Counted from the first letter of the whole stretch, positions 754-31,866 are shown. The stretch: DNA of 59,149 bases, filler included, from 8 parts of 8 records of this genome joined end to end with filler, not necessarily neighbours in it; one strand, 5' to 3'. Numbers and translations: made by a program. The notes: generated by a model not told the origin, from the letters alone.

Positions 754-758
754 AAACA

Positions 759-788
759 GAATAGTTTGAAGGCTATCGAGTCATAATA
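759..788 (+). promoter_or_regulatory. SigmaG-type forespore promoter
   Basis: GAATA-N18-CATAATA matches the sigmaG consensus GHATA-N18-CATANTA; lies upstream of coat-like genes. Confidence 0.65.
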
Positions 789-890
789 AGCACCGGAGTT
801 TGTCGTCTATGCTGTCGACGGACTCCGGTATAAATTTTAGTTTATACGATCCGAAAAACCGGCGACGCCGGTAAAACAGGAGGTATTATT

Positions 891-1076
891 TTGGCAAATC
901 TCACATCAAAAGAGCTGTCCGCCATTGAGGATCAGGCCGGCCAGGAGCAGTCCCTTGTAAAAAAGTACCAGGCCATGGCAAGCATGTGCACCGATACAAA
1001 GATCCAGCAGTGCCTGAATGACTATGCCAACAAGCACCAGCAGCATTTTAATTCTCTGGTAACATTTTTACAGTAG
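891..1076 (+). CDS. Small spore coat-associated protein (Coat F/ferritin-like, 61 aa)
   Basis: AGGAGG RBS and TTG start; LTSKEL...IEDQ...E...VKKY...HQQHF pattern typical of clostridial partners of Coat F genes. Confidence 0.7.
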   Translation: MANLTSKELSAIEDQAGQEQSLVKKYQAMASMCTDTKIQQCLNDYANKHQQHFNSLVTFLQ

Positions 1077-1090
1077 CGGGAGGAAACATT

Positions 1091-1360
1091 ATGAATATGA
1101 CAACCAATCAGGGACTGACGGAAAAAGAAATCCTGCAGGATTCGCTCATCTGCGAAAAACAAATGACGTCGAGCTATAATACGTTTGCCGGCGAATGCGT
1201 TAACCCGCAGCTGCGCAGCACGATGCTGAACATTTTGAACGATGTGCACACCATCCAGGCGGATATTTTCTCGACGATGCAGCAAAACGGCTGGTATCAG
1301 GTCGAGGCAGCCGAGCAGCAGAAAATCCAGAACGCACGTCAGAAGCTCCAATCCTGCTGA
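1091..1360 (+). CDS. Spore coat protein, Coat F domain
   Basis: LTEKEILQDSLICEK...YNTFAGECVNPQLR...MQQNGWY motif; GGGAGG RBS. Confidence 0.85.
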   Translation: MNMTTNQGLTEKEILQDSLICEKQMTSSYNTFAGECVNPQLRSTMLNILNDVHTIQADIFSTMQQNGWYQVEAAEQQKIQNARQKLQSC

Positions 1361-1419
1361 CCGGAAACCATTAAATCCTGATGCTTCAGGATGCCTATTA
1401 TAAGAAACCTCTTTAAAAT

Positions 1420-1454
1420 AAAAGCTGCGTCGTAAAAATTGACGCAGCTTTTTT
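1420..1454. terminator. Bidirectional intrinsic terminator
   Basis: AAAAGCTGCGTC...GACGCAGCTTTTTT between convergent genes. Confidence 0.8.
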
Positions 1455-1492
1455 CTTTAGCATATCGGCCGACCGGTCGAATCTGTTTGCTC

Positions 1493-1666
1493 TCAGCTCC
1501 ACATATTAGTGATATTGTCAATCATTTCTCCGGCGGCCTTAAGAGCCTTGCCTGCCATACTTTTATTATTTTTACTTTTTGGTGAGAACATCATTCCCAC
1601 AGCAGCGCCCGTCATCACACCAACAGCCATACCCTTAACAAATCCGGTTCTTGACATTTGCATCAT
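1493..1666 (-). CDS. Small membrane-anchored protein, YtxH-like N-terminus
   Basis: FVKGMAVGVMTGAAVGMMFSPK glycine-zipper helix followed by a basic tail. Confidence 0.7.
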   Translation of the reverse strand: MMQMSRTGFVKGMAVGVMTGAAVGMMFSPKSKNNKSMAGKALKAAGEMIDNITNMWS

Positions 1667-1843
1667 TCTTACCCCATTCCGCCGCTGCACACGGCTTATA
1701 ATTTTGTGATTAAGACACCCTTATCGGCGCAGCAGCAATGATAAGGGCTTTATCTGTCACCGGCCTGCGCCTGTAGCCGGATGGCCGCCAGGCACGAAAA
1801 AAACGGTGAAGTTTATTGCAAAACAAGCGTTTCGCGTCGGTTG

Positions 1844-1873
1844 TAGTATGCGCTTGCTAAAAAAATATTATTC
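1844..1873 (-). promoter_or_regulatory. SigmaG-type promoter driving the YtxH-like gene
   Basis: Minus strand reads GAATA-N18-CATACTA. Confidence 0.6.
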
Positions 1874-1963
1874 CTATATAATGCAAACAAACCAGCTTGT
1901 TGACTGAGTCAGTCGTTCTCAAACATTTAACCCGCCGAGGACGCTCATTGCGGAGGTTTCTTT

Positions 1964-3253
1964 ATGCTGCTAATAAAAAACGGACTTGTCGCTGACGCCG
2001 GATCGCTCGAACCGGTAAAAAACGACATTTTTATAAAAGACGGTAAAATCACGCCTTTAAAAGACAGGCCCTCGGATTTGAGCGGCGTATCCGTGATTGA
2101 CGCCGAGGGACTCATTGTCGCACCCGGGCTTGTGGATATGCATGTGCACTTCCGCGATCCCGGCTTTCTTTATAAAGAGGATATTTTTACCGGCGCGCGC
2201 GCGGCCGCGGCCGGCGGCGTGACAACGGCTGTTTGTATGCCGAACACATCCCCGGTTTTGGACAAGCCTGAAACGATTACGGACCTGACGGCGCGCGCCA
2301 AAGGGGCCGATATCAACGTCCTGCCGTATGGCGCGGTGACGGCCGGACAAAAAGGCGAATATCTGACGGACGCGGCCGCGCTCAAAGCCGCGGGCGCCGT
2401 CGGCCTGTCGGATGACGGACTGCCGGTTATGAGCGCAGCAGTCCTGCTGGCGGCTTTAAAAAAAGCCAAAGAGGCCGGCCTTGTAATCATCAGCCACTGC
2501 GAGGACGCCGGACTTGTGCGTGATTACGCCGTTAATGACGGCATCGTGTCCCGCAAGCTCGGCCTCCCCGGACGTCCCGCCGTTGCGGAGGACCTCATGG
2601 TCGCGCGGGACGCGATGCTGGCTAAAGAGGCCGGCGCGCGTATTCATATCGCACACGTCAGCACGGCAGGCGCTGTTGATATTATCCGGAAAGCAAAGGC
2701 CGTCGGCGTGCCCGTCACGGCTGAGACGTGCCCGCATTATTTTACACTGACGGAGGACGAGGTCCTCTTGCGTGGCGCGATGGCCCGCGTCAATCCCCCG
2801 TTGCGCACACCAAAGGACGTCAAGGCCGTAATGGACGGCTTAATGGACGGGACCCTCGACGCCATCGCCACAGACCATGCCCCGCACAGCGCCGCGGAAA
2901 AAGGGCAGCCGCTTGAAAAAGCGCCCAGCGGCATCTCGGGGCTCGAAACGTCGCTGGGCGTCACACTGACGGCGCTGTATCATACGGGCAAGCTCCCGCT
3001 GGGCCGCATCATTGAACTCATGTCCACCCGCCCGGCCGATATACTCGGCCTTAAAAAGGGCCGAATCGGCATTGGAGACGACGCTGACCTTGTCATCTTC
3101 GACCCTAACAGGGAATGGACAGCCGACCCGGACGCATTCCGCTCAAAGGGCCATAACACGCCTTTTGCCGGCCGGACGCTCAAGGGCAAGGTTCAATACA
3201 CAATCTGCGCAGGTAAAATCGTTTATTCGGAGGAACATACGCATGTCATTTGA
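1964..3253 (+). CDS. pyrC: Dihydroorotase
   Basis: DMHVHFRDPG, MPNT, HIAHVS, NPPLR and ATDHAPH motifs; upstream of pyrF. Confidence 0.95.
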   Translation: MLLIKNGLVADAGSLEPVKNDIFIKDGKITPLKDRPSDLSGVSVIDAEGLIVAPGLVDMHVHFRDPGFLYKEDIFTGARAAAAGGVTTAVCMPNTSPVLDKPETITDLTARAKGADINVLPYGAVTAGQKGEYLTDAAALKAAGAVGLSDDGLPVMSAAVLLAALKKAKEAGLVIISHCEDAGLVRDYAVNDGIVSRKLGLPGRPAVAEDLMVARDAMLAKEAGARIHIAHVSTAGAVDIIRKAKAVGVPVTAETCPHYFTLTEDEVLLRGAMARVNPPLRTPKDVKAVMDGLMDGTLDAIATDHAPHSAAEKGQPLEKAPSGISGLETSLGVTLTALYHTGKLPLGRIIELMSTRPADILGLKKGRIGIGDDADLVIFDPNREWTADPDAFRSKGHNTPFAGRTLKGKVQYTICAGKIVYSEEHTHVI

Positions 3254-4166
3254 TCGTTTGCAGGCAAAAATCCTGCAGCTTAAAAATCCGACCGTCGTCG
3301 GACTGGACCCGAAGCCGGACTATATTCCAAAGCACATCCTGGACCGTCACCTGGCTGAAAAGGGTGAAACCCTCGAAGCGATGGCGGACGCCTTTCTGGA
3401 ATTCAATCAGACTCTGATGGACGCGCTGTGCGATATCATTCCCGCCGTCAAGCCGCAATCAGCCTTTTACGAGCTTTTAGGCCCGGCAGGCGTCGACGCG
3501 CTGAAAAAGACCGTGGATTACGCGCAGTCCAAAGGCCTTTATGTTATCGGCGACATCAAGCGCGGCGATATCGGCTCAACGGCCGAGGCTTACAGCGAGG
3601 CCTATCTCGGCAGCGTGAAAATTGGCGGCAGCGAGCTCGTCCCTTTCGGGTTTGACGCCGTTACGGTCAACGCCTATCTCGGCTCGGACGGCGTGCGTCC
3701 GTTTCTTGACACAGCCGCGCGTAACGATGGGGCGATTTTCGTGCTTGTCAAGACCTCCAACCCCTCCAGCGCTGAGCTTCAGGATCTTGAAACGGGCGGG
3801 CAGAAGCTTTATACCGTCATGGGCGACCTGATGGAAAAGCTGTCGTCGGACTCGCGCGGGCAGTATGGCTATTCCCGCGCCGGGGCTGTGGTCGGCGCGA
3901 CATATCCGGAGGAACTTAAATTCCTGCGCGACCGGCTTAAACAGACGTTTTTTCTGGTTCCCGGTTACGGGGCGCAGGGCGGAGGCGCATCCGACGTGGC
4001 CGGCGCATTCGCCAATGGCGGGCGCGGCGCGATCATCAATTCCTCCAGAGGTATTATCTGCGCGTGGAAAAAGACCGGCAGGGACGGCGCGGACTATGCC
4101 GAGGCGGCGCGCGCCGAGGCGCTGCGGATGCGCACGGACCTATGCTCTGTCATTAATTTTAATTAA
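3243..4166 (+). CDS. pyrF: Orotidine-5'-phosphate decarboxylase
   Basis: VGLDP, KPQSAFYE, DIKRGDIGST, VGAT and PGYGAQGG motifs; likely start is the ATG at 3243 overlapping the pyrC end. Confidence 0.95.
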   Translation: MSFDRLQAKILQLKNPTVVGLDPKPDYIPKHILDRHLAEKGETLEAMADAFLEFNQTLMDALCDIIPAVKPQSAFYELLGPAGVDALKKTVDYAQSKGLYVIGDIKRGDIGSTAEAYSEAYLGSVKIGGSELVPFGFDAVTVNAYLGSDGVRPFLDTAARNDGAIFVLVKTSNPSSAELQDLETGGQKLYTVMGDLMEKLSSDSRGQYGYSRAGAVVGATYPEELKFLRDRLKQTFFLVPGYGAQGGGASDVAGAFANGGRGAIINSSRGIICAWKKTGRDGADYAEAARAEALRMRTDLCSVINFN

Positions 4167-4181
4167 ACCAGGAGGACCGCC

Positions 4182-4853
4182 ATGTACAGGGTGCTCATCG
4201 TCGAGGACGACGACGCCATTTCGCGCGCCTTGGAAAAATATCTGGAGTCCTGGGGGCTTGAGGCTGCCTGCGTCACTGATTTCAGCGATGTTATGGCCGA
4301 GTTTGCCGCTTACGACCCGCAGCTGGTGCTCTTGGATATCAAGCTGCCGTTTTTTAACGGGTATCATTGGTGCCGCCAGATCCGCGCCGTATCGAAGGTG
4401 CCGGTGATTTTTATCTCGTCGGCCTCGGAAAACATGAATATTGTCATGGCGATGAACATGGGCGGCGACGACTTTATCGCTAAGCCCTTTGATCTGGACG
4501 TGCTCATCGCCAAGGTACAGGCGCTTTTGCGCCGGGCGTACGATTACGCCGGCACGTCACGCCTGATCGAGTGCCGGGGCGCCGTTTTAAATACGGCCGA
4601 CGCCACGCTCACCTATAATGGCGAAAAGCTCGACCTGACAAAAAACGAATACCGGGTCCTCGAGCTTCTCATGTCCCAGCGGGGCAAAACAGTTAGCCGG
4701 GACGCTATCATGGCTCGTTTGTGGGAAAACGACAGTTTTGTGGACGAAAACGCGCTGACGGTGAGTGTGACACGTCTGCGCCGCAAGCTTGAGTCCAGCG
4801 GACTCGTGGGATTTATCGTGACTAAAAAAGGGCTGGGTTATCAGGTTGGCTGA
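4182..4853 (+). CDS. OmpR-family response regulator (BceR/GraR-like)
   Basis: Receiver domain LLDIKLPFFNGYHWC, MAMNMGGDDF; winged-helix LTVSVTRLRRKL. Confidence 0.9.
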   Translation: MYRVLIVEDDDAISRALEKYLESWGLEAACVTDFSDVMAEFAAYDPQLVLLDIKLPFFNGYHWCRQIRAVSKVPVIFISSASENMNIVMAMNMGGDDFIAKPFDLDVLIAKVQALLRRAYDYAGTSRLIECRGAVLNTADATLTYNGEKLDLTKNEYRVLELLMSQRGKTVSRDAIMARLWENDSFVDENALTVSVTRLRRKLESSGLVGFIVTKKGLGYQVG

Positions 4854-4881
4854 GTCCATCAGGCCTTGAAGGAGTGTTTTT

Positions 4882-5862
4882 ATGCTCGTAGGCTATTTGC
4901 GCCGTCATATTAAGATCATTATTCTTCTTGCACTGTTCGTTCTCATCTTCACGGTTGTCTTTAACCTGTACGAGCTGCCGACAGAAGCCGTCTTGTACGC
5001 GGCGGCCTTATGCCTTCTGGTCGGGCTGTTATTATTTTTCATCGGCTTTATCCGATATATTTCTCAGCATAAAACCCTTGCCGAAATGTCGCGACGGATT
5101 ACGGTCAGTTATGACGGGCTGCCCGCGCCGCGCGGACAGCTGGAGGACGATTATCAGGAGCTGGTCAAAGCGCTCTATCGCGAATCGGCGCGCGCGCGCT
5201 CCGAGGCCGACAGCGCCAAGAGCGAGCTGCTTGATTATTTCACACTCTGGGTCCATCAAATCAAAACGCCGATTGCCGCTATGCGCCTGCTTTTAATGAC
5301 CGAGCAGGGCGAGCAGAATATGGCGCTGTCTGCCGAGCTGGTTAAAATCGAGCAGTACGTAGACATGGCGCTGCAATATCTCCGCCTTGACAGCGACACA
5401 ACCGATTTGGTTATACGTGAATGTGACCTGGATGAGCTCATCCGTCAATCCTTACGGAAATACGCCAATCTGTTTATTCTCAAGAAAATCCAGCTTGATT
5501 TCCAGGAGACGAAGCTCAAAGTGCTGACCGACGAGAAATGGCTGTCCTTTATTCTGGAGCAGCTTTTAGGCAATGCGCTCAAGTACACCAAAAAGGGCGC
5601 CGTAACGATCCGCGTCGAGGGCCTCGCGCTTATCGTGGAGGACACTGGCGTCGGCATCCGGCCGGAGGACCTGCCGCGTATATTTGAAAAAGGCTTTACG
5701 GGCCTTAACGGCCGGGAGGACAGGAAATCAACCGGCCTCGGCCTGTATCTGACGAAGCGCGCTGCCGACCTTTTGGGCCACACCATCACGGCCGAATCAA
5801 CGGTTGGCACCGGTACGCGCATTAAAATCGACCTCGTGACTGTGCGCACCATTCTCGATTAG
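4882..5862 (+). CDS. Intramembrane-sensing histidine kinase (BceS/GraS-like)
   Basis: Two closely spaced TM helices; WVHQIKTP H-box, NALKY, DTGVGI, GFTG, GLGLYL. Confidence 0.9.
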   Translation: MLVGYLRRHIKIIILLALFVLIFTVVFNLYELPTEAVLYAAALCLLVGLLLFFIGFIRYISQHKTLAEMSRRITVSYDGLPAPRGQLEDDYQELVKALYRESARARSEADSAKSELLDYFTLWVHQIKTPIAAMRLLLMTEQGEQNMALSAELVKIEQYVDMALQYLRLDSDTTDLVIRECDLDELIRQSLRKYANLFILKKIQLDFQETKLKVLTDEKWLSFILEQLLGNALKYTKKGAVTIRVEGLALIVEDTGVGIRPEDLPRIFEKGFTGLNGREDRKSTGLGLYLTKRAADLLGHTITAESTVGTGTRIKIDLVTVRTILD

Positions 5863-5895
5863 CAGTAAAAAACGTATCCTTTTCGGCTTCCATTA

Positions 5896-5938
5896 GCAAA
5901 TTGTCCGGGCCCCGCATATAACGTAACGGGGGTGATAT
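5896..5938 (+). promoter_or_regulatory. Sporulation-type promoter plus RBS, copy 1
   Basis: GCAAA-N14-CATATAACGTAACGGGGGTGATAT; the 25-mer at 5914-5938 is 23/25 identical to 6246-6270. Confidence 0.6.
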
Positions 5939-5941
5939 ATT

Positions 5942-6121
5942 TTGTACTGCGGACTTGGCAGATGCGGCTACCCCTTCGGCTGGCGTAACTATGGGTATGG
6001 CTATGGGTACTATCCAGGTTACGGCCGCTGGCGCAGCTTCGGTTATCCCGGTTATTACGGCAGATTCGGTTACCCGTACCGCGGATACGGCTGGGGCGGT
6101 TACAACCGCTTATTCTGGTAA
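5942..6121 (+). CDS. Gly/Tyr-rich small protein, 59 aa (MYCGLGRCGYPFGWRNYGYGYGYYPGYGRWRSFGYPGYYGRFGYPYRGYGWGGYNRLFW), probable spore coat component
   Basis: Translated by hand; GGGGTGA RBS, TTG start, TAA stop, downstream hairpin; below the ORF-track size cutoff. Confidence 0.8.
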   Translation: MYCGLGRCGYPFGWRNYGYGYGYYPGYGRWRSFGYPGYYGRFGYPYRGYGWGGYNRLFW

Positions 6122-6227
6122 ATTAACGGCCTGCCCGCAAAAAGGCGGGCCGTACATACAGTTTTTTTCATAGCGTTTAAAGCGGGCCGAGCCCCGTCTT
6201 TTTTATTATGGCGGGCATGACATTATC

Positions 6228-6270
6228 GCAAAATAAGGACGCTGGGCATATAACGTAGCAGGGGTGATAT
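6228..6270 (+). promoter_or_regulatory. Sporulation-type promoter plus RBS, copy 2
   Basis: GCAAA-N14-CATATAACGTAGCAGGGGTGATAT. Confidence 0.6.
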
Positions 6271-6273
6271 TAT

Positions 6274-6423
6274 ATGTTCAACGGATATAACCGATGCCGC
6301 TACATCGAACGTGGATACGTATGCTGCCGCAGCTGTTGTTCCGGTCCGTCACGCTGCCGCAGAGGCTGCAGCACCTGCTGCCAAAGCTATTACCGGCAAT
6401 ACTGCCGCCGCGGGGTCTGCTAG
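6274..6423 (+). CDS. Cys/Arg-rich small protein, 49 aa (MFNGYNRCRYIERGYVCCRSCCSGPSRCRRGCSTCCQSYYRQYCRRGVC)
   Basis: Translated by hand; GGGGTGA RBS, ATG 6274, TAG 6421-6423, hairpin GCCCGT...ACGGGC downstream; 11 Cys. Confidence 0.75.
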   Translation: MFNGYNRCRYIERGYVCCRSCCSGPSRCRRGCSTCCQSYYRQYCRRGVC

Positions 6424-6516
6424 ACCAACAGGCCCGTATATAATAACGGGCTAAAGCTTGCCGAGAAAGTCTTTTATCCTTCGTCTATGCGTCCAATCGC
6501 CGTGCGATTGAATTTT

Positions 6517-6616
6517 NNNNNNNNNNNNNNNNNNNNNNNNNNNNNNNNNNNNNNNNNNNNTTAATTAATTAANNNNNNNNNNNNNNNNNNNNNNNNNNNN
6601 NNNNNNNNNNNNNNNN
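6517..6616. other. Artificial contig linker; further copies at 12775-12874, 18323-18422, 24320-24419, 31963-32062, 48030-48129 and 53685-53784
   Basis: N44-TTAATTAATTAA-N44, with stops in all six frames; composition and gene content change at each linker. Confidence 0.98.
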
Positions 6617-7966
6617 AGTTTGGGGAATCGGACCCAACTGTCTCGGGATTCCCTGTCCCAGAAAGATAATTTCATTCAGCTCATCTCTATCCATCGCAAG
6701 GGACATCGCCTGACGAAAGCGCACATCCGACATAGCATCAGTCAGGATGGGATCCTTAGGATAGGTAGTATTAAATCCGAATACAATGTAGGAACCCTTT
6801 ACTCCCGTACCGAGAAATGCTCGATAATCACCTTTTTCCTCATTATCCTTAAACATCGGGAAATCATTGAGAGAGAGGTCCTTGGAGGCAATGCTGTAAT
6901 CACCGTTCATGGCTCCGATTGTTTTTGAGTCGGTATTCTGAACTACGATTCGATGCATTTCATCAAGATACGGCAGCTGATTGCCTGCTACATCAACTTT
7001 CCAGTAGTAGGGATTTCGTTCAAAGAAGCGGTTTCCTGAAGTATCCGTACCAACCCAAACCCATGGATTCAGAACCGGCAGATCCATATCGACCTGTTTC
7101 TGTCCGCCATCCTGTCTGGTGTAGTGATCCTGAAATGCTTCAACCCAGCTCTCATATCCATTCTGTTTAGCCGACTTGTCAGCATCTGCATTATATTTTA
7201 TATGATACTGCTTCAGATAATGAGCCGGTGCGAAAGGATCGATCTGGGTATAATTCTTGGATATTTTTGCTGCTATTGTCGGGTTTGGAAGCTTGAAGTT
7301 AAACTGGATAGTGTAATCGTCAATTTTCTCCATAACCACCGGTTCGCCGCCGACTACCCAGAAGGCATTCGGTACGGGAGTAAGTTCTTCATTTGTAAAG
7401 ATATCTTCATACCAGAACATGAAATCTTCTGCGGTAAAGTACTCACCGTCACTCCAGCGCATACCTTCACGAAGACTTATAACCATGCTTTTATTGTCAT
7501 TAATAAATTCCACCGATTTGGCTATGTTGGGATATACCGTCGATAAATCGGGAAGGTATGAAAAAAGTTTCTGTTCACGTATAGTGGCCAAATCCCAGCC
7601 TTCATTTGTCGGAGTTGTAGCCGCACCTCTGAAAATACCGCCATAGGTACCGATTGCATCACTCGGCTGGACAACCATAGGAGCATCACTGATCCTCATT
7701 TCAACCGGATCAAGCTCATTATTTTTCACCATCTCAGCAAGCTCAGGTGCTTCACTGAAGGATTCAATTGATAACCCTGTTTTTTCAGTAAAATCCTGAG
7801 GTGAATTATAGATTATAATTTCTCCATTAAATTCAATTTGAGAATCCACCTCATCGGCAACCGCTGCAGCAGTTTCAGTTTCTTCCTGGCCTCCTGCGGC
7901 AGCAGTCATTACGATTGCAAGGAACAGTACCATTGCAACTAGAAAAATTCTTGAGAATTTTTTCAT
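6617..7966 (-). CDS. ABC transporter substrate-binding protein, family 5 (3'-truncated)
   Basis: Signal peptide ending AAAGGQEE (spirochaete style); EAPEL, IGTYGG, LREGMRWSDG, RNPYYWKVD.GNQLPYLD, FRQAMSLAMDR. Confidence 0.9.
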
Positions 7967-8284
7967 ACATAATCTCCTTCATAAATTTAGATATAACTAT
8001 TCTCAATCAGGCTGATGCTGTCCACAACCAACAATTATACTCAATTAGTGGATTATAATTATCAAAAAACAAAATTTCATATATTTTTTGATCATAAACC
8101 CATCTTTATTTAATTAATTATTATCCACCCTTTCATCATTATTATCAGTTTTAAACTACCTGAAAAAACCTTTATTATGTATGAAAATCAGTATGGATTC
8201 CTCCAATGTAATGCTGATAAAATAGTAATATTCTGAAGCGGCTGCCGGTAGTTTCTTTTGCTTCAGAATTTATTTTGTGAAGTT

Positions 8285-10468
8285 ATGAAAAACAGACGAA
8301 AAAAACTGCTCTATCAACACGCTATGAATGATGCAGACAGACGCTATCATCCGGAAATCGGACTTGTTTCCTCCGGTTCTATGGGTGAAGCTGAAGGCAC
8401 ATGCTTTAGACCGGCCGGCTCTCTCGGTTATGCTCTGGCTCTGCTGGCCGAAGGATATCCGGAATCGGTTGAGAGAGCCCGCACCATCATTTCCGCGGTA
8501 TTGGATTCCCAGGAACTGAACCCAGACAGACCCCACTATGGCAATTTTGTCTGGCTGGCAGGAGATTCAGAAGTCGGCGACCTGAACGCCGTGCAGTTCG
8601 TTATGAGGGGGCTCCTGCCGATTCTCATTCGGCATGAGCAAAAACTGCCGAATACTCTCATAGATCGCTGTAAAAAAGCACTTAAACTTGCGCTTAATGA
8701 AGAAGTCCTGCTGGATGTCTCCTATCAATATACCAACATTCATCTTATGTCTCTTTTTGCCCTGCTGACAGGAGGACAGTGGCTGGATGACGAACATTTC
8801 CGAAAGATCGGCAGGGAACGCTGGGAACGGTTTATACAGTTAACGGCAGCAGGCGGTGCTCCGTATGAATACAACAGCTTCAATTACTGTTCGGTGGACT
8901 TGTCAGTACTGGCCGCACTCATCAGCCTGACCGATGAAGATGATATAAGACTGCAGGCAAAACTGCTCTATGAACGCTTCTGGCTGCACGTCGGACTGCA
9001 TATACACTACCCGACTCACCAGCTGGCGGGACCGCACTGCCGTGCATACTGGAAACCGATGAATAGCGGGTATGGTTTGCTGGGTGATCTTATATGGAGT
9101 TTGACATGCTGGGATGAATTTATACACACAACGGATGACGGCACTGCTGAAATGGAGAGCCTCTACGCTCTTGAACTGCTGCAGACCGAACACAACCCGC
9201 CGGATTACCTATTCCCTTGGATACGGAACCAGAAAGCGTATATGCCTTATGAAGTTGTCGAATCGGTACATTCTCAGCGGGACGATGATATCATAACCTA
9301 CGTATCTCCATCATTTTCACTTGGAACGGCCGCACGCACCTACGGCATCGGGACGGATTGTTTTTATATTGAACATCAGGCTAACTATATGGCTTTGCAC
9401 TATACGAAACCCGATAACACCTGGAATATGGTTTATTCCCGTTTCGTCATAAACGACAGACACTGGAATACTATCTCCGCGGCTTCCGATCGCCCGACGA
9501 ATGCCAATTTCTATGAACAGGGCAATTACGGCGGTGTACAGGCTGCCGGAAAATCCATCAATCTTTATTCCCTTCTGCCTCAGCAGGAAGAGGTTTTCTC
9601 AATTAAAACGGCAATTGTCTTCCCGGCCGGTCAGGATATTACCAGAATACTGGTGAATGATAATGATGTCGACTGGAACGATTTGCCCCGAAGTATAGAG
9701 CCCGATGAATGGATTGTTGTTGAGGACGGCAATACTTATATCGGAATCTATCCGCTTGACTATTCCCATTTGGGACCCGGAACCGGAATTCAGTTGGAAC
9801 AGGGACCGTGCAGCGAATTATGGCTTACCGTTTCCAACTACCGGGGAACACCCAAACGATTCTGGGAATACGCATCGCTAAAAGGAGTATTCTGGAAGGG
9901 CAATATAAAAGCCGGGTATATTCTTGATGCTGCTGAGACTGCTGATTACCCGTGTGCGGAAGATTTTTCCAAAGCCCTGAGGCAGGCTGTCATTGAAGAC
10001 ACCATGAGTGAACGGCATGTGCGTTCAGTTCGTTATTATCGTGATGGAACGGACATCAGTCTGGATTACGACTTGATGGACAGCGATGTCCTGGAACGAC
10101 GTCGGAACGGTGAGAAAATTTCCCCGGCCGGGCTTTTGTCACCGTTAGCCGTGCATGGTTCATCCGGGTATCTGGAACTTGACGGCGCTGCCGTATCGGC
10201 AAATAAGCAGCCGATCATCCTCATTTCCCATACAGGGATTGCGGATTTTGAGTCGCGGATAGGTATTAATCTGACTGATGCCCCGACTCCTTTACGGTTC
10301 AGTACCCCGCAAGGTGTACTAACCGCAGAGAATTGGGGGATGGGCCGCATCGAATGGAAAACGTTTACATCCGGTAAACAGACAATAGAAATTCAGGGAT
10401 TGACAGAACCGGAAAATATATCGGCACCCGATGATGTCCGGGTCACATTTCAAAAAAGAAGCAGGTAA
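8285..10468 (+). CDS. Large hypothetical protein, possibly heparinase II/III or polysaccharide-lyase-like
   Basis: About 727-aa ORF, helical N-half and beta-rich C-half; EYNSxxY and GPHCRAY motifs; 2 nt from the sulfatase start; exact start uncertain. Confidence 0.6.
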   Translation: MKNRRKKLLYQHAMNDADRRYHPEIGLVSSGSMGEAEGTCFRPAGSLGYALALLAEGYPESVERARTIISAVLDSQELNPDRPHYGNFVWLAGDSEVGDLNAVQFVMRGLLPILIRHEQKLPNTLIDRCKKALKLALNEEVLLDVSYQYTNIHLMSLFALLTGGQWLDDEHFRKIGRERWERFIQLTAAGGAPYEYNSFNYCSVDLSVLAALISLTDEDDIRLQAKLLYERFWLHVGLHIHYPTHQLAGPHCRAYWKPMNSGYGLLGDLIWSLTCWDEFIHTTDDGTAEMESLYALELLQTEHNPPDYLFPWIRNQKAYMPYEVVESVHSQRDDDIITYVSPSFSLGTAARTYGIGTDCFYIEHQANYMALHYTKPDNTWNMVYSRFVINDRHWNTISAASDRPTNANFYEQGNYGGVQAAGKSINLYSLLPQQEEVFSIKTAIVFPAGQDITRILVNDNDVDWNDLPRSIEPDEWIVVEDGNTYIGIYPLDYSHLGPGTGIQLEQGPCSELWLTVSNYRGTPKRFWEYASLKGVFWKGNIKAGYILDAAETADYPCAEDFSKALRQAVIEDTMSERHVRSVRYYRDGTDISLDYDLMDSDVLERRRNGEKISPAGLLSPLAVHGSSGYLELDGAAVSANKQPIILISHTGIADFESRIGINLTDAPTPLRFSTPQGVLTAENWGMGRIEWKTFTSGKQTIEIQGLTEPENISAPDDVRVTFQKRSR

Positions 10469-10470
10469 TT

Positions 10471-11931
10471 ATGGCTGAAAATTATACAGAACACAAACAG
10501 AAACCGAACATCGTTTTTATCTTCACCGACGATCAGCGATTCGACACGATTTCCGCCCTCGGCAACCGGGAAATCGATACGCCGAATATGGACCGGCTGG
10601 TACGCTCGGGAACCACCTTCACTCATGCTCATATCATGGGTGCAACAGCTCAGGCAGTCTGCATGCCCAGCCGGGCTATGATGATGACCGGAAGAACTAT
10701 TTTTTCAATTGAGAACGAGGGACAGAGCATACCTGAAGCGCACACGACTATGTTTGAGTGGTTCCGCTCTCACGGCTATACCACCTGCCATGTCGGGAAA
10801 TGGCACCAAGACAGGGCATCGCACCATCGTTCATTCGATACCGGCTCCCGCATCTTCGGTTTTGAGAAACCGGGTACATGGTTTGCATCCAATGCCCACT
10901 GGCATACACCTGTTCACAATTTCGATCCGACAGGCAGCTACGATCCCGATGATACCTATATGAACCCGCCCTTGGAACCGTTCACACAGCCGTTTGAAAC
11001 AACCAAAGAGCACGGCAAACATTCAGCCGAATTCTTCACCGACGGTGCGGTAGAATTTCTGGAAGATCATGTGATTTCGGAAAACGGAAAACCGTTTTTT
11101 CTTTACCTAGCTCATCTGGCACCTCATGATCCCCGGCAATACCCCCGGCGTCTGGTCGAACGCTACCGGGAAAGCAATGTATCACTTCCAGACAATTTTG
11201 CAATTAAACACCCGTTCGACAACGGCGATTATTATGTGCGGGACGAACTGCTGGAAGCGCATCCCAGACGCCCCGAACGCATAAAACAGCACCTCGCCGA
11301 TTATTACGCAATCATCACACATCTTGATGAGCAGCTGGGCCGCTTGCTGGATCGGCTGGAAGCACTCGGTGAGGCTAAAAATACCATCATTGTATTTGCC
11401 GGGGATAATGGCCTGGCAGTTGGTCAGCATGGCCTCATGGGAAAACAGAACCTTTATGATCACAGTATCAGAGTGCCCCTTATCATTTCCGGACCCAACG
11501 TTCCTGCCGATCAGCGTACATCTGCATTCTGCTATCTGCTCGATATCTTCCCGACACTTTGCGATCTTACCGGTCTCGAGACCCCGGAAAGCGTTGAAGG
11601 TAAAAGCCTTCAGCCGGTAATGGAAAAACCTGCTGCATCAGTTAGGGATAAGCTGCACTTTGCCTACCGCGGAGTTCAGCGGGCCGTAAAATGGGGATCG
11701 TGGAAGTTGATTGAGTATGTTGTGAACGGAAGCAGAAAAACACAGCTTTTCAATCTGGCAGCCGATCCGTGTGAAATGCATAATCTGGCGGGAAGTCCGG
11801 AGTATACGGAATTTTTAAAAGAAATGCGTTCGGAACTGGAAAAACTGCCGCAGGAACTGGGAGATACTCGAGACCTGCATGGGAAACCGTTCTGGGAAGG
11901 GTACCACGCATTGACACCGGAAATACCCTAG
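10471..11931 (+). CDS. Formylglycine-dependent (Cys-type) sulfatase
   Basis: PNIVFIFTDDQ, TPNMDRL, CMPSR..MMTG, GKWH, PHDP, GDNG, GKQNLY. Confidence 0.93.
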   Translation: MAENYTEHKQKPNIVFIFTDDQRFDTISALGNREIDTPNMDRLVRSGTTFTHAHIMGATAQAVCMPSRAMMMTGRTIFSIENEGQSIPEAHTTMFEWFRSHGYTTCHVGKWHQDRASHHRSFDTGSRIFGFEKPGTWFASNAHWHTPVHNFDPTGSYDPDDTYMNPPLEPFTQPFETTKEHGKHSAEFFTDGAVEFLEDHVISENGKPFFLYLAHLAPHDPRQYPRRLVERYRESNVSLPDNFAIKHPFDNGDYYVRDELLEAHPRRPERIKQHLADYYAIITHLDEQLGRLLDRLEALGEAKNTIIVFAGDNGLAVGQHGLMGKQNLYDHSIRVPLIISGPNVPADQRTSAFCYLLDIFPTLCDLTGLETPESVEGKSLQPVMEKPAASVRDKLHFAYRGVQRAVKWGSWKLIEYVVNGSRKTQLFNLAADPCEMHNLAGSPEYTEFLKEMRSELEKLPQELGDTRDLHGKPFWEGYHALTPEIP

Positions 11932-11992
11932 ATAGTCAGACGGTGGGCAGAATATGCCCGACACCGGCCAGTATTTCGAAAGCAGCAGTCTG

Positions 11993-12774
11993 CTATTCTA
12001 TCGCATGCAGATAGCCGCCGGAACTGAGCATAAACAGTGTATTGTCATACCAGGCTCCACAGGATTCCTCAACACGATTTCCCATCCTGAATGTCCAGTA
12101 ACATGTGGTTGTTCCGTCGCCGTTTCCACGTTCATCAACACAGTAAATATAGGGTGATGCAAGCGATCCGAAATAGATTCTTCCGCCGGCAGCAATCGGT
12201 GCGGTATGACCGGCCCCGGGATGCGTCCAGACGATTTCCCTCGTATCAAGATCGATACAATAGACATTGCAGCCGACAGCGATACCGCCAAGACATCTTC
12301 CGATCATTGCCGAGGCAAACACCTTGTTGTCATGAAACGCGGGGGTAACGTTGAAATTCGATTTATCGATATGGATATTCCATTCAACCTCGCCCGTTGC
12401 ACTGTTCAGACACCTGAACTGACTTCCCGGACAGGGAAAATAGAGTTTTCCGTTATGCGCAATCTGAGAACCCGAATCGGATCCCTTGTTGAAATAGCGG
12501 CTCCATTTCACCTTCCCCGCTTCCGTATCTAATGCGTACATAAACTGGTCCCAACCGCCGAAAAACACCGTTTCACCATCCACGGTCGGTTCCGTGCATA
12601 CCGACTTATTCGTTCTGTACCGCCAAATTATTGCTCCGGTTTTCTCATCAAGACAGGCGGCATAGCCGTCAATACACGGAACGAATACTTTTCCTTGAGC
12701 AATGGTGCATGAACCCCAGACCCATCCGATCGACTGCTGCCAGATTTTTCGGCCTGTTTGGGCATCAATACAGT
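11993..12774 (-). CDS. PQQ-like beta-propeller repeat protein (5'-truncated)
   Basis: Repeated YALDxxxGxVxW and CLNxxTGEVxW blades. Confidence 0.8.
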
Positions 12775-12946
12775 NNNNNNNNNNNNNNNNNNNNNNNNNN
12801 NNNNNNNNNNNNNNNNNNTTAATTAATTAANNNNNNNNNNNNNNNNNNNNNNNNNNNNNNNNNNNNNNNNNNNNAAAATAGAGTTAAACCACTGATTTTT
12901 CTTCGAACAAACGCATAACGTTCGACAGCCATTGCAGGGAAATCGT

Positions 12947-26282: not shown

Positions 26283-26600
26283 TTGGAACCTAAATCTCCG
26301 GCTGTGCCAAGCGAAAGAAAGGAAACTCTTCGGCGCCAGGTAATGACTCTATTACGCGAGGGACAACTGTCAGCTAAGGATATCTCAATAGATATCGGTA
26401 TTCGTGAGAAAGATGTCTATCAACATCTCGAGCATATTCAACAGACGCTGCGGCAGGAGAAGTGCCAACTCGTTATCGAACCTGCTATCTGCAAACTGTG
26501 CGGATTTGTTTTTAAAAAACGCACGCGGTTGACCAAACCGGGTAAGTGTCCTCTGTGCAAGGGAAGTTCTATCGAGGAACCGAGATTTTCCCTGTTCTGA
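26283..26600 (+). CDS. HTH plus Zn-ribbon predicted transcriptional regulator
   Basis: EKDVYQHLEHI, PAICKLCGFVF, PGKCPLCK. Confidence 0.85.
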   Translation: MEPKSPAVPSERKETLRRQVMTLLREGQLSAKDISIDIGIREKDVYQHLEHIQQTLRQEKCQLVIEPAICKLCGFVFKKRTRLTKPGKCPLCKGSSIEEPRFSLF

Positions 26601-26685: not shown

Positions 26686-26714
26686 TTGACAGCAACAGAT
26701 CCTTTAACTACTAT
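26686..26714 (+). promoter_or_regulatory. Sigma70 promoter upstream of the KamA pair
   Basis: TTGACA-N17-TACTAT. Confidence 0.75.
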
Positions 26715-26777: not shown

Positions 26778-26897
26778 TGCTGTTTGGACATTACAATGAT
26801 TTTGCACCAGGAGCCGTTTACATTCAGCCCGATGGGTATTTTCTTAATCCCTCATTGAAAATCGGTGCCCAATAACCCGGAAAGAAACCTTGAAATC

Positions 26898-27968
26898 ATG
26901 ACTTGGCAAGAGCAACTTAAACAATTTGTCAACAGTATTGAAAAGCTTGAAAACTTCATCAATCTGACGAACGATGAACGTAACGTGCTTGAAAACAATC
27001 GGACCACCTGGGGAACCACGCCCTATTTTGCATCGTTAATGGACCGCGACGATCCGAACTGCCCGATCAGGAAACAGGTCATACCCTCAGCCCTTGAAAA
27101 GGAAAACAAATACGGCATGGAGGATTATCTGGTCTGGAAAGAGAACCGGGCCACGGATGAGATACGACCGGACAGCATTGCCCGCCAGTACCGGGACCGG
27201 GTTGCCTTCACAGTCACTCAGGTTTGCGGCATCTACTGTCGCCACTGTTTTCGCAAGGAACTTGTGGTTGACGGCGATCTGAAGCTTGATTTCAACGTCG
27301 ATGAAGGTTTGCAGTGGCTGGCCGAACACCCCGAGGTGCGTGACGTGCTGGTCACCGGCGGTGACCCCTTCCTTCTCGCTGATGATCAGCTGGAATATCT
27401 GATCCGAAAGCTTCGCGAACTGCCGCATATTGAAATGATCCGTTTCGGTACCAGGACACCGATCGTACTACCGCAAAGGATCGATGCCAAACTCAAAAAA
27501 GTGCTCGGCGGCTATCACAAGGTTCCGATCTGGATCAATACTCAGTGCAACCACCCCAAGGAAATTACCGAAGAAACGGCCCGGTGCGTATTCGATCTGC
27601 TCAGTTGCGGCATCAATGTCGGCAACCAGGCGGTGCTGCTGAAAGGAATCAACGACAATGTTGAAACCTTCCGCAGTTTGCACCAGAAGCTGCTAACAGT
27701 CCGGATCAAGCCCTATTACGTCTTTTATTGCGAAGCCGCACCGGGGATCGACCATTTTCGCACCCCGGTTGAGAAAGGGGCTGAATTGATTCGTGACGCT
27801 CTGCGTGGACACACGACAGGTCTTGCCCAGCCGATGTATGTGGTTGCCACCAACATCGGCAAGGTTCCGCTTATGCCGGACTATTACATCATCGATAAAA
27901 ATGAATCTGAGTACACCCTGCGCAACCACAAGGGGGAACATACAACCATCCCGAACGTGCCTGATTAA
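26898..27968 (+). CDS. KamA-family radical SAM/PLP aminomutase, copy 1
   Basis: CPIRKQVIP, CGIYCRHCFR, TGGDP, RFGTR, NHPKE, NQAVLLKGIND, IGKVP. Confidence 0.92.
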   Translation: MTWQEQLKQFVNSIEKLENFINLTNDERNVLENNRTTWGTTPYFASLMDRDDPNCPIRKQVIPSALEKENKYGMEDYLVWKENRATDEIRPDSIARQYRDRVAFTVTQVCGIYCRHCFRKELVVDGDLKLDFNVDEGLQWLAEHPEVRDVLVTGGDPFLLADDQLEYLIRKLRELPHIEMIRFGTRTPIVLPQRIDAKLKKVLGGYHKVPIWINTQCNHPKEITEETARCVFDLLSCGINVGNQAVLLKGINDNVETFRSLHQKLLTVRIKPYYVFYCEAAPGIDHFRTPVEKGAELIRDALRGHTTGLAQPMYVVATNIGKVPLMPDYYIIDKNESEYTLRNHKGEHTTIPNVPD

Positions 27969-28042
27969 CAACATTTGGTGATTGGCTGTGTTACAGCAAG
28001 CCGGGCATCGGCTCGGTAACTACCCGAAACCGAAAGAAAGCA

Positions 28043-29239
28043 ATGGTTGAAAAATCTGAAGTAATCGCTAACAGGAAAAGCGACCTTGACGCTGTCGAGT
28101 GGGCCGACCTCGACTGGCAGCAGGAATTAAAAAACAATATCACCAGTATCGACCAGCTAGCCGAGACCTTGCAACTGCCCCCTGAAGATTTTGCAGACTT
28201 GCGTCAGGTCGTCGATTTGCACCCGATGAACATCCCTCGCTATTATTTAAGCCTTATCGACCGGGATGATCCGCGGGACCCTATTCGTAAACTCTGCATA
28301 CCGCAAAGCGAAGAGTTGATTGTTGCCGGAGCTATGGGTGATACGACCAAAGACCCTTACGGCGACGACAAGCATGACAAGGGCAATGGGGTGCTGCACA
28401 AGTATTCCTACACCGCGCTGGTGGTTGCCACCGAATATTGTGCGATGTACTGTCGGCATTGTTTCCGCAAACGGATGGTTGGCCTGCCGAATGAGCAGAC
28501 GGTCAAGAATTTTCAGGGTGCAGCCGCCTATATTGCCGACAATCCGCAGATCACTAATGTCGTGATCTCCGGTGGTGATCCCTTTATGCTGCCGACCGAT
28601 ACCTTGCGCCGGATGTTGGCCGCCCTTAAGGATATTCCGCATCTCGATTACGTACGCATTGGCTCACGAGCTCCGGTAGTCTACCCGATCCGTTTTTTTG
28701 ATAATGAATTGATTGAGATGCTGACTGAGTTCAATCAGCAGACGGCTTTGTTTGTTCCGACCCATTTCAATCATCCTAAAGAGATCACGCCGCTAGCACG
28801 CGATGCTGTGCTGCGCCTGCGGCAGGCAGGAATCACCGTCAACAATCAGGCGGTTTTCCTGCGCGGAGTTAATGATGATGTTGAAACCCTGGTTGAACTG
28901 ATGAGTGGCCTGCTCGAGATCGGTGTTAACCCTTACTATCTCTACCAGTGTATGCCGGTGGAGAGGGTTCGGCATCATTTTCAGGTGCCGCTCAAGGAAG
29001 GGGTCGAGATTGTTGACGCGGCCCGGCAGCTGATGGACGGATACGCTAAGCGGTTTAAATTCATCATTGGCCACGATATCGGCAAGCTTGAGATCTGCGG
29101 TCAGTTTGACGGCAAGCTGATTCTCAAACAGTTACACGCCCGGCCTGGGCACGAAGAGGAATCCTCTCGCATTCTGGTTAGACAACTTACTGACGATGGC
29201 GGCTGGCTCGATGATCTGCCTGAGGCTCCTCTGTACTGA
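28043..29239 (+). CDS. KamA-family radical SAM/PLP aminomutase, copy 2 (GKLEI type)
   Basis: DPIRK, CAMYCRHCFRKR, SGGDP, THFNHPKE, NQAVFLRGVND, IGKLEI. Confidence 0.92.
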   Translation: MVEKSEVIANRKSDLDAVEWADLDWQQELKNNITSIDQLAETLQLPPEDFADLRQVVDLHPMNIPRYYLSLIDRDDPRDPIRKLCIPQSEELIVAGAMGDTTKDPYGDDKHDKGNGVLHKYSYTALVVATEYCAMYCRHCFRKRMVGLPNEQTVKNFQGAAAYIADNPQITNVVISGGDPFMLPTDTLRRMLAALKDIPHLDYVRIGSRAPVVYPIRFFDNELIEMLTEFNQQTALFVPTHFNHPKEITPLARDAVLRLRQAGITVNNQAVFLRGVNDDVETLVELMSGLLEIGVNPYYLYQCMPVERVRHHFQVPLKEGVEIVDAARQLMDGYAKRFKFIIGHDIGKLEICGQFDGKLILKQLHARPGHEEESSRILVRQLTDDGGWLDDLPEAPLY

Positions 29240-29443
29240 TTTTCATTCAGCCGAAGCTGTGAATAACGGTTAACCTTGATAGAATGAAGTAACAACTGCA
29301 AACATTCAGATGAGAACTTCTGAGGGTTTGCTATTCCTCCGGGCTCCAATGGCGACTTCGGGTGGAAGAAATCCGGTTCCCTTCGCGACATTGAGATTTT
29401 CTTTCAATTGTGTGCAAACTAAACTCAAAGAGGAGGAGACATT

Positions 29444-30181
29444 ATGAAAAAACTGGCGGTATTGGTTCTTGCAAGCATCATGGTTTTTGCGTCTGGAGCA
29501 GCATTTGCCGAAAAGTTGTATGTCGGTGTTGACACGGCTTTTGTCCCCTTTGAATACAAAGGCAAGGATGGAAAATACACCGGATTCGATATTGATCTCT
29601 GGGCAGAAATTGCCAAACGCATCGGTGTTGACTATGAACTCAAACCGATGGACTTCAATGGCTTGATTCCGGGGTTGACAACGGGAAATCTGGATGTTGC
29701 TCTGGCGGCCATTTTCATCAAGTCTTCCAGGGAAAAGAAAATCGATTTTTCCCACCCTTACTTCAGAGCAGGCCTGAAGGTCATGGTTCGGGCTGATAAT
29801 AAGGACATCCAGTCACCGGCAGACCTGAAAGGGAAAGTGGTTGCTGTTAAACTCGGGACCGCAACGGTTGAATACGTTGAAACCCTCGGTGCAAAGAAAG
29901 TTGTCAAGTTCCCGAATATTGACCAGGCTTATCTTGAGGTTGCAACAGGCGGGGCAGACGCCGCAATGCATGATACTCCGAACGTGCTCTACTATATCAA
30001 GACCGCGGGCAACGGCAAGGTCAAGGTAGTAGGGCCCGATGTCAAAGCGGCCCAATACGGGATTGCTTTTCCATCGGGAAGTAAATTACGTGACAAGACC
30101 AACGTAGCTCTTCTAGAGATGATGGAAGATGGTGCTTACGCCGATCTCTATCGTAAATGGTTTGATGCAGACCCTGAATAA
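29444..30181 (+). CDS. glnH: Glutamine-type ABC transporter binding protein
   Basis: DTAFVPFE, GFDIDLW, PMDFNGLIP, FPNIDQAYLE, HDTPNVLY match GlnH. Confidence 0.85.
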   Translation: MKKLAVLVLASIMVFASGAAFAEKLYVGVDTAFVPFEYKGKDGKYTGFDIDLWAEIAKRIGVDYELKPMDFNGLIPGLTTGNLDVALAAIFIKSSREKKIDFSHPYFRAGLKVMVRADNKDIQSPADLKGKVVAVKLGTATVEYVETLGAKKVVKFPNIDQAYLEVATGGADAAMHDTPNVLYYIKTAGNGKVKVVGPDVKAAQYGIAFPSGSKLRDKTNVALLEMMEDGAYADLYRKWFDADPE

Positions 30182-30209
30182 TCCTGAATGAAACACCTCT
30201 TTTAATTGC

Positions 30210-30262
30210 GGAAACAGAGGGCTTTTCTGAAATAATTTACCCAGAAGAGACCCTCTGTTTCC
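30210..30262. other. Intercistronic stem-loop after the binding-protein gene
   Basis: GGAAACAGAGGG...CCCTCTGTTTCC. Confidence 0.7.
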
Positions 30263-30294
30263 TTGAAATATCTCCTAACAAACGAGATAAATTA

Positions 30295-31018
30295 ATGGGT
30301 TTTGAATTTTCAGTTATTCTCGAGTCTATTCCGGCTCTTCTTGTTGGCGCCAAATTGACCTGGGTGATTACTATCCTGGGGATTATCGGTGGCATGATCT
30401 TCGGTATTTTAGCTGGCCTGGGGCGCTTGGCCGGGACTCCTTCCCTCGGTGAAGCACCGCACGGGATTTACCGAATGATCACTGTCCTGATCCGTTATGT
30501 CTCCGGTGGTTATGTCGAGACAATTCGTGGTACCCCGATTATAGTTCAGGCGATGTTTATCTATTTTGCCTTTCCAATGCTCGTCAAAGTGGTCACTGAT
30601 ATTGAACGTTTTCGCATAGAAGCTCTCACTGCCGCTGTCATCACGATTATCATCAACGCGGGAGCTTATATTGCTGAAATTGTTCGTGGCTCGGTCATTT
30701 CTGTGGACAAGGGGCTTCTGGAAGCCGGAATGTCCTTGGGAATCAGTCGTACCCAACTGATCTTGCACGTTATTGGCCCGATAGCCTTCAGAAGAATGAT
30801 TCCTCCTCTCGGTAATCAGTTTATTATCAGCCTTAAAGACACGTCCCTGTTCATTGTCATAGGGGTTGGCGAGCCTAACCCGGCAGGGTCAGGAAATCAT
30901 GGCCAGTAACTTCAGGGCACTTGAAATCTGGCTGACTGTGGCAATCATGTATATGATTATGACAACGGTACTCGCTATGACGTTAAGGCATCTCGAAAGA
31001 AAGATGAAGATATTTTAA
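30295..31018 (+). CDS. glnP: Glutamine-type ABC permease, with a 1-nt insertion near 30874
   Basis: [25 protein letters not shown]; continues in another frame as [20 protein letters not shown]...LERKMKIF. Confidence 0.85.
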
Positions 31019-31122
31019 GAACATGTCGGCCTTTAAACTCTGGTGGGTCAACGCTGAACAAAGGTTTTTCATTCTTTATTTTTCGAAAACCTTAGGATGC
31101 TGATTTTCAAAGAAAGTCGAAA

Positions 31123-31866
31123 ATGATATCGAGCATTATTGAACTGAAAAATGTATGCAAATCATTTGGTGATACGGAAGTTTTACACAATATCAATTTT
31201 TCTGTAGATGAGGGAGAGGTGGTCGTTGTCATCGGTCCCTCCGGGTCCGGGAAGTCAACTCTTATCCGTTGTATTAATTGTCTGGAGATGATCACCAGTG
31301 GAGAGTTGGTTGTTGACAGCATCAAGATTCCTGCCGAAAGACGCCGAGTTCGTCAGATTCGCCTGGAAGTAGGTATGGTCTTTCAACAATTCAATCTGTT
31401 TCCGCACATGACGGCACTCGAAAATGTCGCCTTTGGTCCTCGCAAATCGCGCAGCATGGCTAAGGCCGATGCTGAAAAAGTTGCCAGGGATCTTCTGGGC
31501 AAGGTCGGGCTGGCGGAATTCGAACACAAGTTCCCTGGAAATCTTTCCGGAGGCCAGCAGCAGCGGGTTGCTATTGCCAGGGCTCTGGCGGTCAGTCCCA
31601 AAGTCATGTTGTTTGATGAGCCGACGTCGGCCTTGGACCCTGAAATGATCGGTGAAGTTCTTGACGTCATGAAAAGCATCGCTAGGGATAGCGGCATGAC
31701 CATGATTGTTGTCACCCATGAAATGGGGTTTGCATCCCAGGTCGGAAGCCGGTTGATTTTCATGGACGAAGGCCGAATCGTAGAGGAGGGCAAGCCTGAA
31801 GTTGTGATGAAAAACCCGAAGTCCGAACGTCTGAAGGACTTTTTAGCTCATGTGAAACATCACTAG
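31123..31866 (+). CDS. glnQ: Polar amino acid ABC ATPase
   Basis: [33 protein letters not shown]. Confidence 0.92.

Follow-up and report, generated by a model that had tools for sequence, protein, structure and literature searches.

Within the KamA family of radical-SAM (S-adenosylmethionine) aminomutases, the substrates on record in the NCBIfam library that we searched are lysine, arginine, and glutamate only. Glutamate 2,3-aminomutase (Eam) is regarded as an enzyme that makes the osmolyte beta-glutamate, and in bacteria ablA and eam have already been discussed as osmoprotectant genes, as the available part of that paper has it (PMC9337991). Both beta-glutamate and beta-glutamine are known solutes, the biosynthesis of which was unsettled as of a 2005 review, judging by its accessible portion (PMC1224877). 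Here, we consider two adjacent genes, kam1 and kam2, which encode dissimilar members of this family upstream of a glutamine-type importer in a window of DNA (the whole stretch analyzed, 59,149 nucleotides). On balance, and with somewhat more confidence than doubt, we read them as two complete 2,3-aminomutases from uncharacterized KamA clades that would work independently of each other in making beta-amino-acid solutes, with kam1 most likely converting glutamine to beta-glutamine.

Both genes are intact and lie on the plus strand of a 7.5-kb contig (24420–31962), together with the transporter genes glnH, glnP, and glnQ. kam1 (26898–27968) encodes a radical-SAM/PLP (pyridoxal phosphate) aminomutase of 356 residues. 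Its open reading frame (ORF) is listed with starts at 26865 and 26898, and the ATG at 26898 is backed by the length of the homologues (356–358 residues). kam2 (28043–29239), which encodes a KamA-family aminomutase of 398 residues, begins 74 nt further on, and glnH follows kam2 after 204 nt. The preliminary description of this DNA had reported two complete, dissimilar radical-SAM genes 74 nt apart with glnHPQ behind them on the same strand, and this is confirmed by the ORFs, the Pfam and NCBIfam models, and the alignments.

The two proteins are 33% identical across 332 residues. Both have a Pfam match to Radical_SAM, whereas kam1 alone has one to LAM_C, and the sole NCBIfam model of the family that either passes is TIGR00238 for the KamA subfamily (278.3 bits for kam1 and 277.6 for kam2; cut-off 199.2). 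Scores for the more specific models stay below their cut-offs for kam1 and kam2, respectively: 340.2 and 273.5 for AblA (TIGR03820; cut-off 525.4), 349.1 and 264.2 for arginine 2,3-aminomutase (TIGR04468; 600), 335.9 and 254.6 for glutamate 2,3-aminomutase (TIGR04368; 650), and 195.2 and 238 for EpmB (TIGR03821; 369.3). Residues 13–362 of kam1 align to residues 19–365 of lysine 2,3-aminomutase (LAM; structure 2A5H) with E = 9.5e-92, in a comparison of sequence alone, and residues 14–336 of kam2 align to the same structure with E = 3e-70. Despite the missing Pfam match to LAM_C, the C-terminal domain of kam2 is also predicted to have the LAM fold, because its AlphaFold2 model (pLDDT 83.7) is matched to 2A5H by Foldseek over 390 columns (TM 0.76).

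The catalytic motifs are in place in both enzymes. The cluster motif reads CGIYCRHCFRK in kam1 and CAMYCRHCFRK in kam2, and the motif of the PLP lysine reads NIGK and DIGK. In our alignment of 60 family members, from which the pocket positions were also taken, CxxxCxxC, the Arg after the cluster, and the PLP lysine are invariant in both kam clades and retained throughout the family. Each enzyme would thus have a [4Fe-4S]/SAM site, a PLP-binding lysine, and an Arg that binds the alpha-carboxylate, and, as family members, they would be expected to shift the amino group of a free amino acid from the alpha position to C3, giving a metabolically inert beta-amino acid.

The substrate pockets tell the two apart from the known enzymes. 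In LAM, Asp293 and Asp330 are the residues that we take to bind the epsilon-ammonium group of lysine, and the corresponding positions are Asp/Asp in all six AblA rows and all three lysine-type rows of the alignment. They are occupied by Glu and Ala in the kam1 clade and by Met and Gly in the kam2 clade, in each case invariantly in every aligned sequence; the pocket Gly of kam2 is followed by His-Asp, and a loop of the protein carries an RVRHH insertion. Neither the GGGG loop nor the C-terminal Cys cluster is found in kam1 or kam2 in the alignments. These computed alignments show that the pockets had been read correctly by eye in the preliminary description (FYCE/VVATNIGK and YQCM/IIGHDIGK, no GGGG loop, no Cys cluster), as had the Lys/Asn pair of glutamate 2,3-aminomutase: among ten sequences of the TIGR04368 clade, five of them over the cut-off, the Asp293 position is Lys in nine and the Asp330 position is Asn in all ten. 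A clade of archaeal and Firmicute proteins that is sister to kam2 has Arg at the first position and Ser at the second (Ala in 2 of 12 rows).

From these pockets, neither enzyme would be expected to act on lysine in the known way. Public annotations suggest otherwise, in that some homologues are entered at their source as “lysine 2,3-aminomutase” or the like, and both genes often adjoin ablA–ablB. However, that kam1 and kam2 are ordinary LAM isozymes with drifted pockets strikes us as very improbable: both Asp residues are replaced, with no variation inside either clade, the scores are well under the AblA and EpmB cut-offs, and a genuine AblA, or else EpmA plus a KamA of the lysine type that has the Asp pair, coexists with the kam genes in the same genomes. 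For example, the closest public genome (G001; 96–97% identical at this locus) encodes four members of the KamA family, including a lysine-type copy that has the Asp pair, and carries EpmA on another contig, so lysine chemistry is already covered there. The absence of efp, epmA, and ablB, which the preliminary description had pointed out, is true of the contig but has little weight, given that the contig is 7.5 kb long, that G001 has EpmA, and that relatives place kam1 and kam2 beside ablA–ablB. The fourth KamA-like gene of G001 (L084, 1408–2796) encodes a very divergent protein of 462 residues that scores 138 bits, below the family cut-off, and adjoins a CmoB-like methyltransferase gene.

A maximum-likelihood tree of the 59 rows left after removal of six duplicates and a very distant KamA-like sequence places kam1 in a clade of its own (support 100/100) on a long stem. 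This clade joins that of the glutamate enzymes with moderate support (86/88). kam2 also has its own clade (100/99), which joins the Arg-bearing archaeal and Firmicute clade (100/99) at a distance from the group of lysine enzymes, glutamate enzymes, and kam1. Neither protein falls inside a characterized clade. A position inside one, which the preliminary description had named as the refuting outcome, is thus not what the tree shows, and the scores, the pocket alignment, and the tree together bear out the proposal that both lie outside the lysine, glutamate, arginine, and elongation factor P (EF-P) aminomutase groups. The Arg-bearing sister clade of kam2 (L039–L080, e.g., L042 6630–7823) includes Methanothrix, ANME, Bathyarchaeia, Thorarchaeota, and many Clostridia; it also appears uncharacterized, and its substrate could conceivably be acidic (e.g., glutamate).

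Whether the two genes belong together was assessed in a sample of 151 genomes of the same class, with statistics uncorrected for shared ancestry. Orthologues of kam1 are present in 39 of these genomes (68–97% identity; next paralogue at most 46%), and those of kam2 in 16, as well as in many other phyla. Nine genomes have both (Fisher p = 0.006), i.e., 9 of the 16 with kam2, and kam1 is found within 6 kb of kam2 at 8 of 49 distinct kam2 loci. This association and adjacency would suit an obligate heteromer, as the preliminary description had entertained. However, 30 of the 39 kam1 genomes are without kam2 and 7 of the 16 kam2 genomes are without kam1, and the full set of catalytic motifs is present in each protein. 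Because they are distributed independently, a fixed two-enzyme system does not hold up and a heteromer is hardly credible; kam1 and kam2 are independent modules that sometimes meet, and the enzymes would work separately.

For kam1, glutamine is the best-fitting substrate because the clade is nearest to the glutamate enzymes, because the swap of Lys to Glu in the pocket suits a change from a carboxylate to a carboxamide, and because a dedicated glutamine synthetase (GS) would supply glutamine. The last point comes from gene context, taken within a 6-kb range at 39 loci; these represent 38 of the 39 genomes with kam1, one of which gave two loci. A GS paralogue (GS2 and/or GS3) stands beside kam1 at 11 of the 39 loci. 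GS2 is a separate paralogue that shares approximately 36% identity with the housekeeping GS of its own genomes and stays under the GlnA cut-off (375.3 and 346.5 bits vs 429.15), and the GS2–kam1 pair also occurs in two genomes (G307 and G308) that have a glnHPQ–kam2 operon elsewhere. In some kam1 operons, GS3 is followed immediately by GS2; the two are different GS-like genes, with approximately 30% identity (L116 5380–9331; L132 1208–5230). Where such a paralogue is present, it may provide the L-glutamine that kam1 would convert to beta-glutamine; in the window's lineage, the housekeeping GS or import may do so.

The same neighbours could be read differently. If kam1 were a second type of glutamate 2,3-aminomutase, its beta-glutamate could be amidated to beta-glutamine by the adjoining GS paralogue, as has been proposed for Methanohalophilus, the GS of which is reported to accept beta-glutamate in the accessible portion of the review cited above (PMC1224877). 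The grouping of kam1 with the Eam clade and the 11 loci with a GS paralogue agree with this. However, the Lys of the Eam pocket is Glu in kam1, which would set an acid unfavourably against the carboxylate of the substrate, and GS2 is missing from the lineage of the window although kam1 is present, so we regard this route as improbable. Equally improbable, in our estimate, is that kam1 takes arginine, or a basic amino acid with a shorter chain than that of lysine (e.g., ornithine or 2,4-diaminobutyrate), with the product acetylated by AblB or otherwise used. A single Glu in place of Asp293 would be compatible with such a substrate, kam1 lies directly 3′ of ablB at 9 of the 39 loci, and the arginine enzyme is by a small margin its best equivalog match (349.1 bits). 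That score is nevertheless far under the cut-off of 600, and a basic substrate would leave the GS, GntR, and GlnHPQ neighbours and the Eam grouping unexplained; the reference enzymes in the pocket comparison were those of the lysine and glutamate types.

A role in osmoprotection, suggested in the preliminary description, gains backing from the neighbours in relatives, namely ablA–ablB, proVWX, and the dedicated GS paralogue. Besides the GS genes and the nine ablA–ablB pairs, the kam1 loci have a GntR/FCD regulator just upstream (10/39), orthologous glnHPQ (4/39), kam2 (4/39), and proV-type betaine transporter genes (3/39), and 24 of the 39 have at least one of the listed neighbours other than GntR. 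At the 49 distinct kam2 loci, we found glnQ with or without glnH and glnP (6), ablA–ablB (5), and proVWX (2); at least one listed neighbour (kam1, glnQ, ablA–ablB, or proVWX) is present at 16. One locus combines most of these in the order proVWX–kam1–small peptidase–kam2–ablA–ablB (L092). The identity of the neighbours is supported by NCBIfam scores of 777.6 bits for AblA at L092 (cut-off 525.4), 320.1 for AblB (205.1), 523.7 for ProV (444), and 447.5 for ProX (215). Taken together, the abl genes, betaine transport, and kam1 would form a trio that mirrors the solute trio of Methanohalophilus, as far as the available part of the source goes (PMC1224877). Both kam genes may therefore belong to a loosely linked, shuffled osmoadaptation set of marine anaerobes.

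At 3 of the 39 kam1 loci, a gene for a small PF05618 protein (retropepsin-like or “ATP-dependent zinc protease”) lies 3′ of kam1 (L092 7636–8115; L107 9401–10000; L100 897–1388). PF05618 genes usually accompany RimK-type glutamate ligases.

The substrate of kam2 would probably be neutral or an amide, or possibly glutamate. Directly upstream of a spirochaete homologue lies a gene for an amidase-signature enzyme (PF01425, 278.9 bits; L035 3–1298), a single case that is consistent with an amide as substrate or product of kam2, and cation/proton antiporter genes adjoin some other homologues. Outside Desulfobacterota, clustering of the neighbouring ORFs found no gene common to more than five kam2 loci except ABC (ATP-binding cassette) ATPases, and the sampled neighbours were heterogeneous. 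Three homologues 61–64% identical to kam2 (L028, L033, and L041; about 1–9700 and 11200–12800) stand head-to-head with a gene for a protein of approximately 3,200 residues, and at L028 a type-II thioesterase and a phosphopantetheinyl transferase follow. These clusters resemble those for non-ribosomal peptides and polyketides, which suggests that in those genomes the kam2 product may be a beta-amino-acid building block.

The importer behind kam2 is of the E. coli GlnHPQ type, and the linkage to glnHPQ noted in the preliminary description recurs in other genomes. glnH (29444–30181, plus strand) encodes a periplasmic binding protein that scores 332.8 bits against NF007029 (cut-off 303), is approximately 60% identical to the E. 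coli glutamine-binding protein (GlnBP), and scores 274 bits against GlnBP structures. glnQ (31123–31866, plus strand), the ABC ATPase gene, also passes its model (NF007027; 392.8 bits vs 379). The permease gene glnP (30295–31018, plus strand) is split over two frames by one extra base near 30874: its ORF ends early at 30909, and the conserved C-terminus is encoded by the next frame (30875–31018). The shortfall of GlnP against its cut-off (214.7 bits vs 303) is due only to this probable assembly frameshift. Because the extra base is missing from the Logan contigs of two runs, X1, from which this DNA may derive, and X2, an independent metagenome of marine sediment, the frameshift is probably an assembly error and the gene intact. 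Orthologues of this GlnH (at least 80% identity) are present in 8 of the 151 genomes, and are accompanied by kam1 in all eight (Fisher p = 1.1e-5, without correction for relatedness) and by kam2 in two.

Among the ligand contacts of GlnBP, Lys115 and His156 presumably touch the side chain. Of 13 GlnBP positions checked, 10 are retained in all nine kam-linked GlnH sequences, including Asp10, Ala67, Arg75, Lys115, His156, and Asp157; the changes are Thr70Phe, Gly68Ala, and Gly119Ala. According to the available part of a simulation paper, Asp10 and Ala67 contact the side chain and Thr70 the alpha-group of the ligand (PMC7400645). The position of Thr70 is Phe in 9 of 9 kam-linked sequences, while among 44 other relatives (single-domain sequences from the best 150 representatives) it is Thr or Ser in 37 and Phe in 2. 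The Thr70Phe change hints modestly at a ligand with another head group, such as a beta-amino acid would have. Gly68Ala and Gly119Ala were dropped as meaningful changes, since both positions vary across the 44 relatives. The transporter may import glutamine or recapture leaked beta-solute.

An importer changed at the alpha-group contact could also serve uptake and use rather than synthesis, with beta-amino acids from the pore water of sediments imported by the GlnHPQ variant and isomerized back to alpha-amino acids. Aminomutase reactions are reversible, and near-identical DNA is present in a metagenome run from marine sediment. However, the neighbours are biosynthetic or protective (ablA–ablB, proVWX, and GS) rather than catabolic, no glutaminase or dehydrogenase gene recurs among them, and the amidase appears only once (L035), so we think this direction unlikely.

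Several points weigh against glutamine conversion and a shared solute role. The substrates are assigned from the gene neighbours and from two positions in the pocket, and the pocket Glu of kam1 would suit a basic side chain such as that of ornithine or diaminobutyrate as well as an amide. The support for the grouping of kam1 with Eam is only moderate (86/88), and the window's own lineage is without GS2. None of the listed neighbours is found at 15 of the 39 kam1 loci or at 33 of the 49 kam2 loci, some of which are on short contigs, and the three kam2 homologues beside the protein of approximately 3,200 residues are in clusters of the non-ribosomal peptide or polyketide kind, not salt-stress clusters. 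In addition, GlnH is over the glutamine equivalog cut-off and may simply import glutamine. What stands of the proposal of an undescribed aminomutase system for another imported amino acid, with glutamine as a candidate, is that the enzymes lie outside the known groups and that glutamine has gained support, mainly for kam1; the notion of a fixed two-enzyme system has not stood. A more specific version, in which kam1 is a glutamine 2,3-aminomutase, kam2 adds another new specificity to that solute economy, and GlnHPQ with Thr70Phe is dedicated to recapturing beta-amino acids, is a tentative possibility that we are inclined to doubt as a whole.

The remainder of the contig offers a few further features. 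A small PF0610-like regulator with a winged helix and a zinc ribbon is encoded upstream of kam1 (26283–26600, plus strand; PF21476, 57.8 bits; PF23470, 40.1 bits). It is retained at only 1 of the 39 kam1 loci, that of the closest relative (L001), and at other loci MarR or GntR occupies its position. The 297-nt gap upstream of kam1 contains a sigma-70-like match, TTGACA-17-TACTAT (26686–26714, plus strand; 10 of 12 positions), which is a candidate promoter only, as promoter-like sites near kam1 are not enriched (8 found vs 8.2 expected in shuffles). A terminator scan found no terminator-like sites in the kam1–kam2 or kam2–glnH gaps, and an Rfam scan of the 7.5-kb contig (E up to 1) gave no matches, so the 297-nt leader has no known riboswitch. 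A search of sequencing runs for this DNA listed no RNA run. The window as a whole consists of eight contigs chained via seven pairs of 44-base N runs (6517–53784), and their GC content ranges from approximately 40% to approximately 60%, which makes it uncertain that all come from a single organism.

Our literature search found no account of the kam1 and kam2 clades or of a glutamine 2,3-aminomutase; most subscription journals were outside its coverage, and earlier work may exist. If the favoured assignment of kam1 is true, glutamine 2,3-aminomutase would be a specificity described for no enzyme and would allow marine anaerobic bacteria to make the compatible solute beta-glutamine directly. The two clades supply concrete candidate genes, with rebuilt pockets and salt-protection neighbours, in widespread anaerobes of marine sediments. 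Carriers are in culture, among them Malonomonas rubra, which has both genes, and Desulfuromonas acetoxidans, which has kam1, so the function is directly testable.

Each of the described systems is resembled in part. Eam (TIGR04368), the nearest clade to kam1 (86/88), shares with it the fold family and the motifs for the cluster, the PLP lysine, and the carboxylate Arg; however, it has a Lys/Asn pocket in place of Glu/Ala, kam1 is approximately 60 residues shorter and scores 335.9 bits against the cut-off of 650, and a stem branch of 1.85 lies between the two. LAM of C. subterminale (2A5H), with AblA, is the best solved match for both kam1 and kam2, presumably with the same type of reaction, and relatives of the kam genes adjoin ablA–ablB, but in the kam proteins both lysine-holding Asp residues are replaced, neither the GGGG loop nor the C-terminal Cys cluster is present, and the scores are under the cut-off. 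EpmB (YjeK), which acts in the beta-lysylation of EF-P, is likewise a short KamA-family protein without the C-terminal Cys cluster, whereas kam1 and kam2 stay under its cut-off of 369.3 and have no efp or epmA on their contig. Finally, the kam-linked importer is like E. coli GlnHPQ in that GlnH and GlnQ pass the equivalog cut-offs and the residues contacting the side chain are retained, and it differs from E. coli GlnBP in having Phe in place of Thr70 in all nine sequences.

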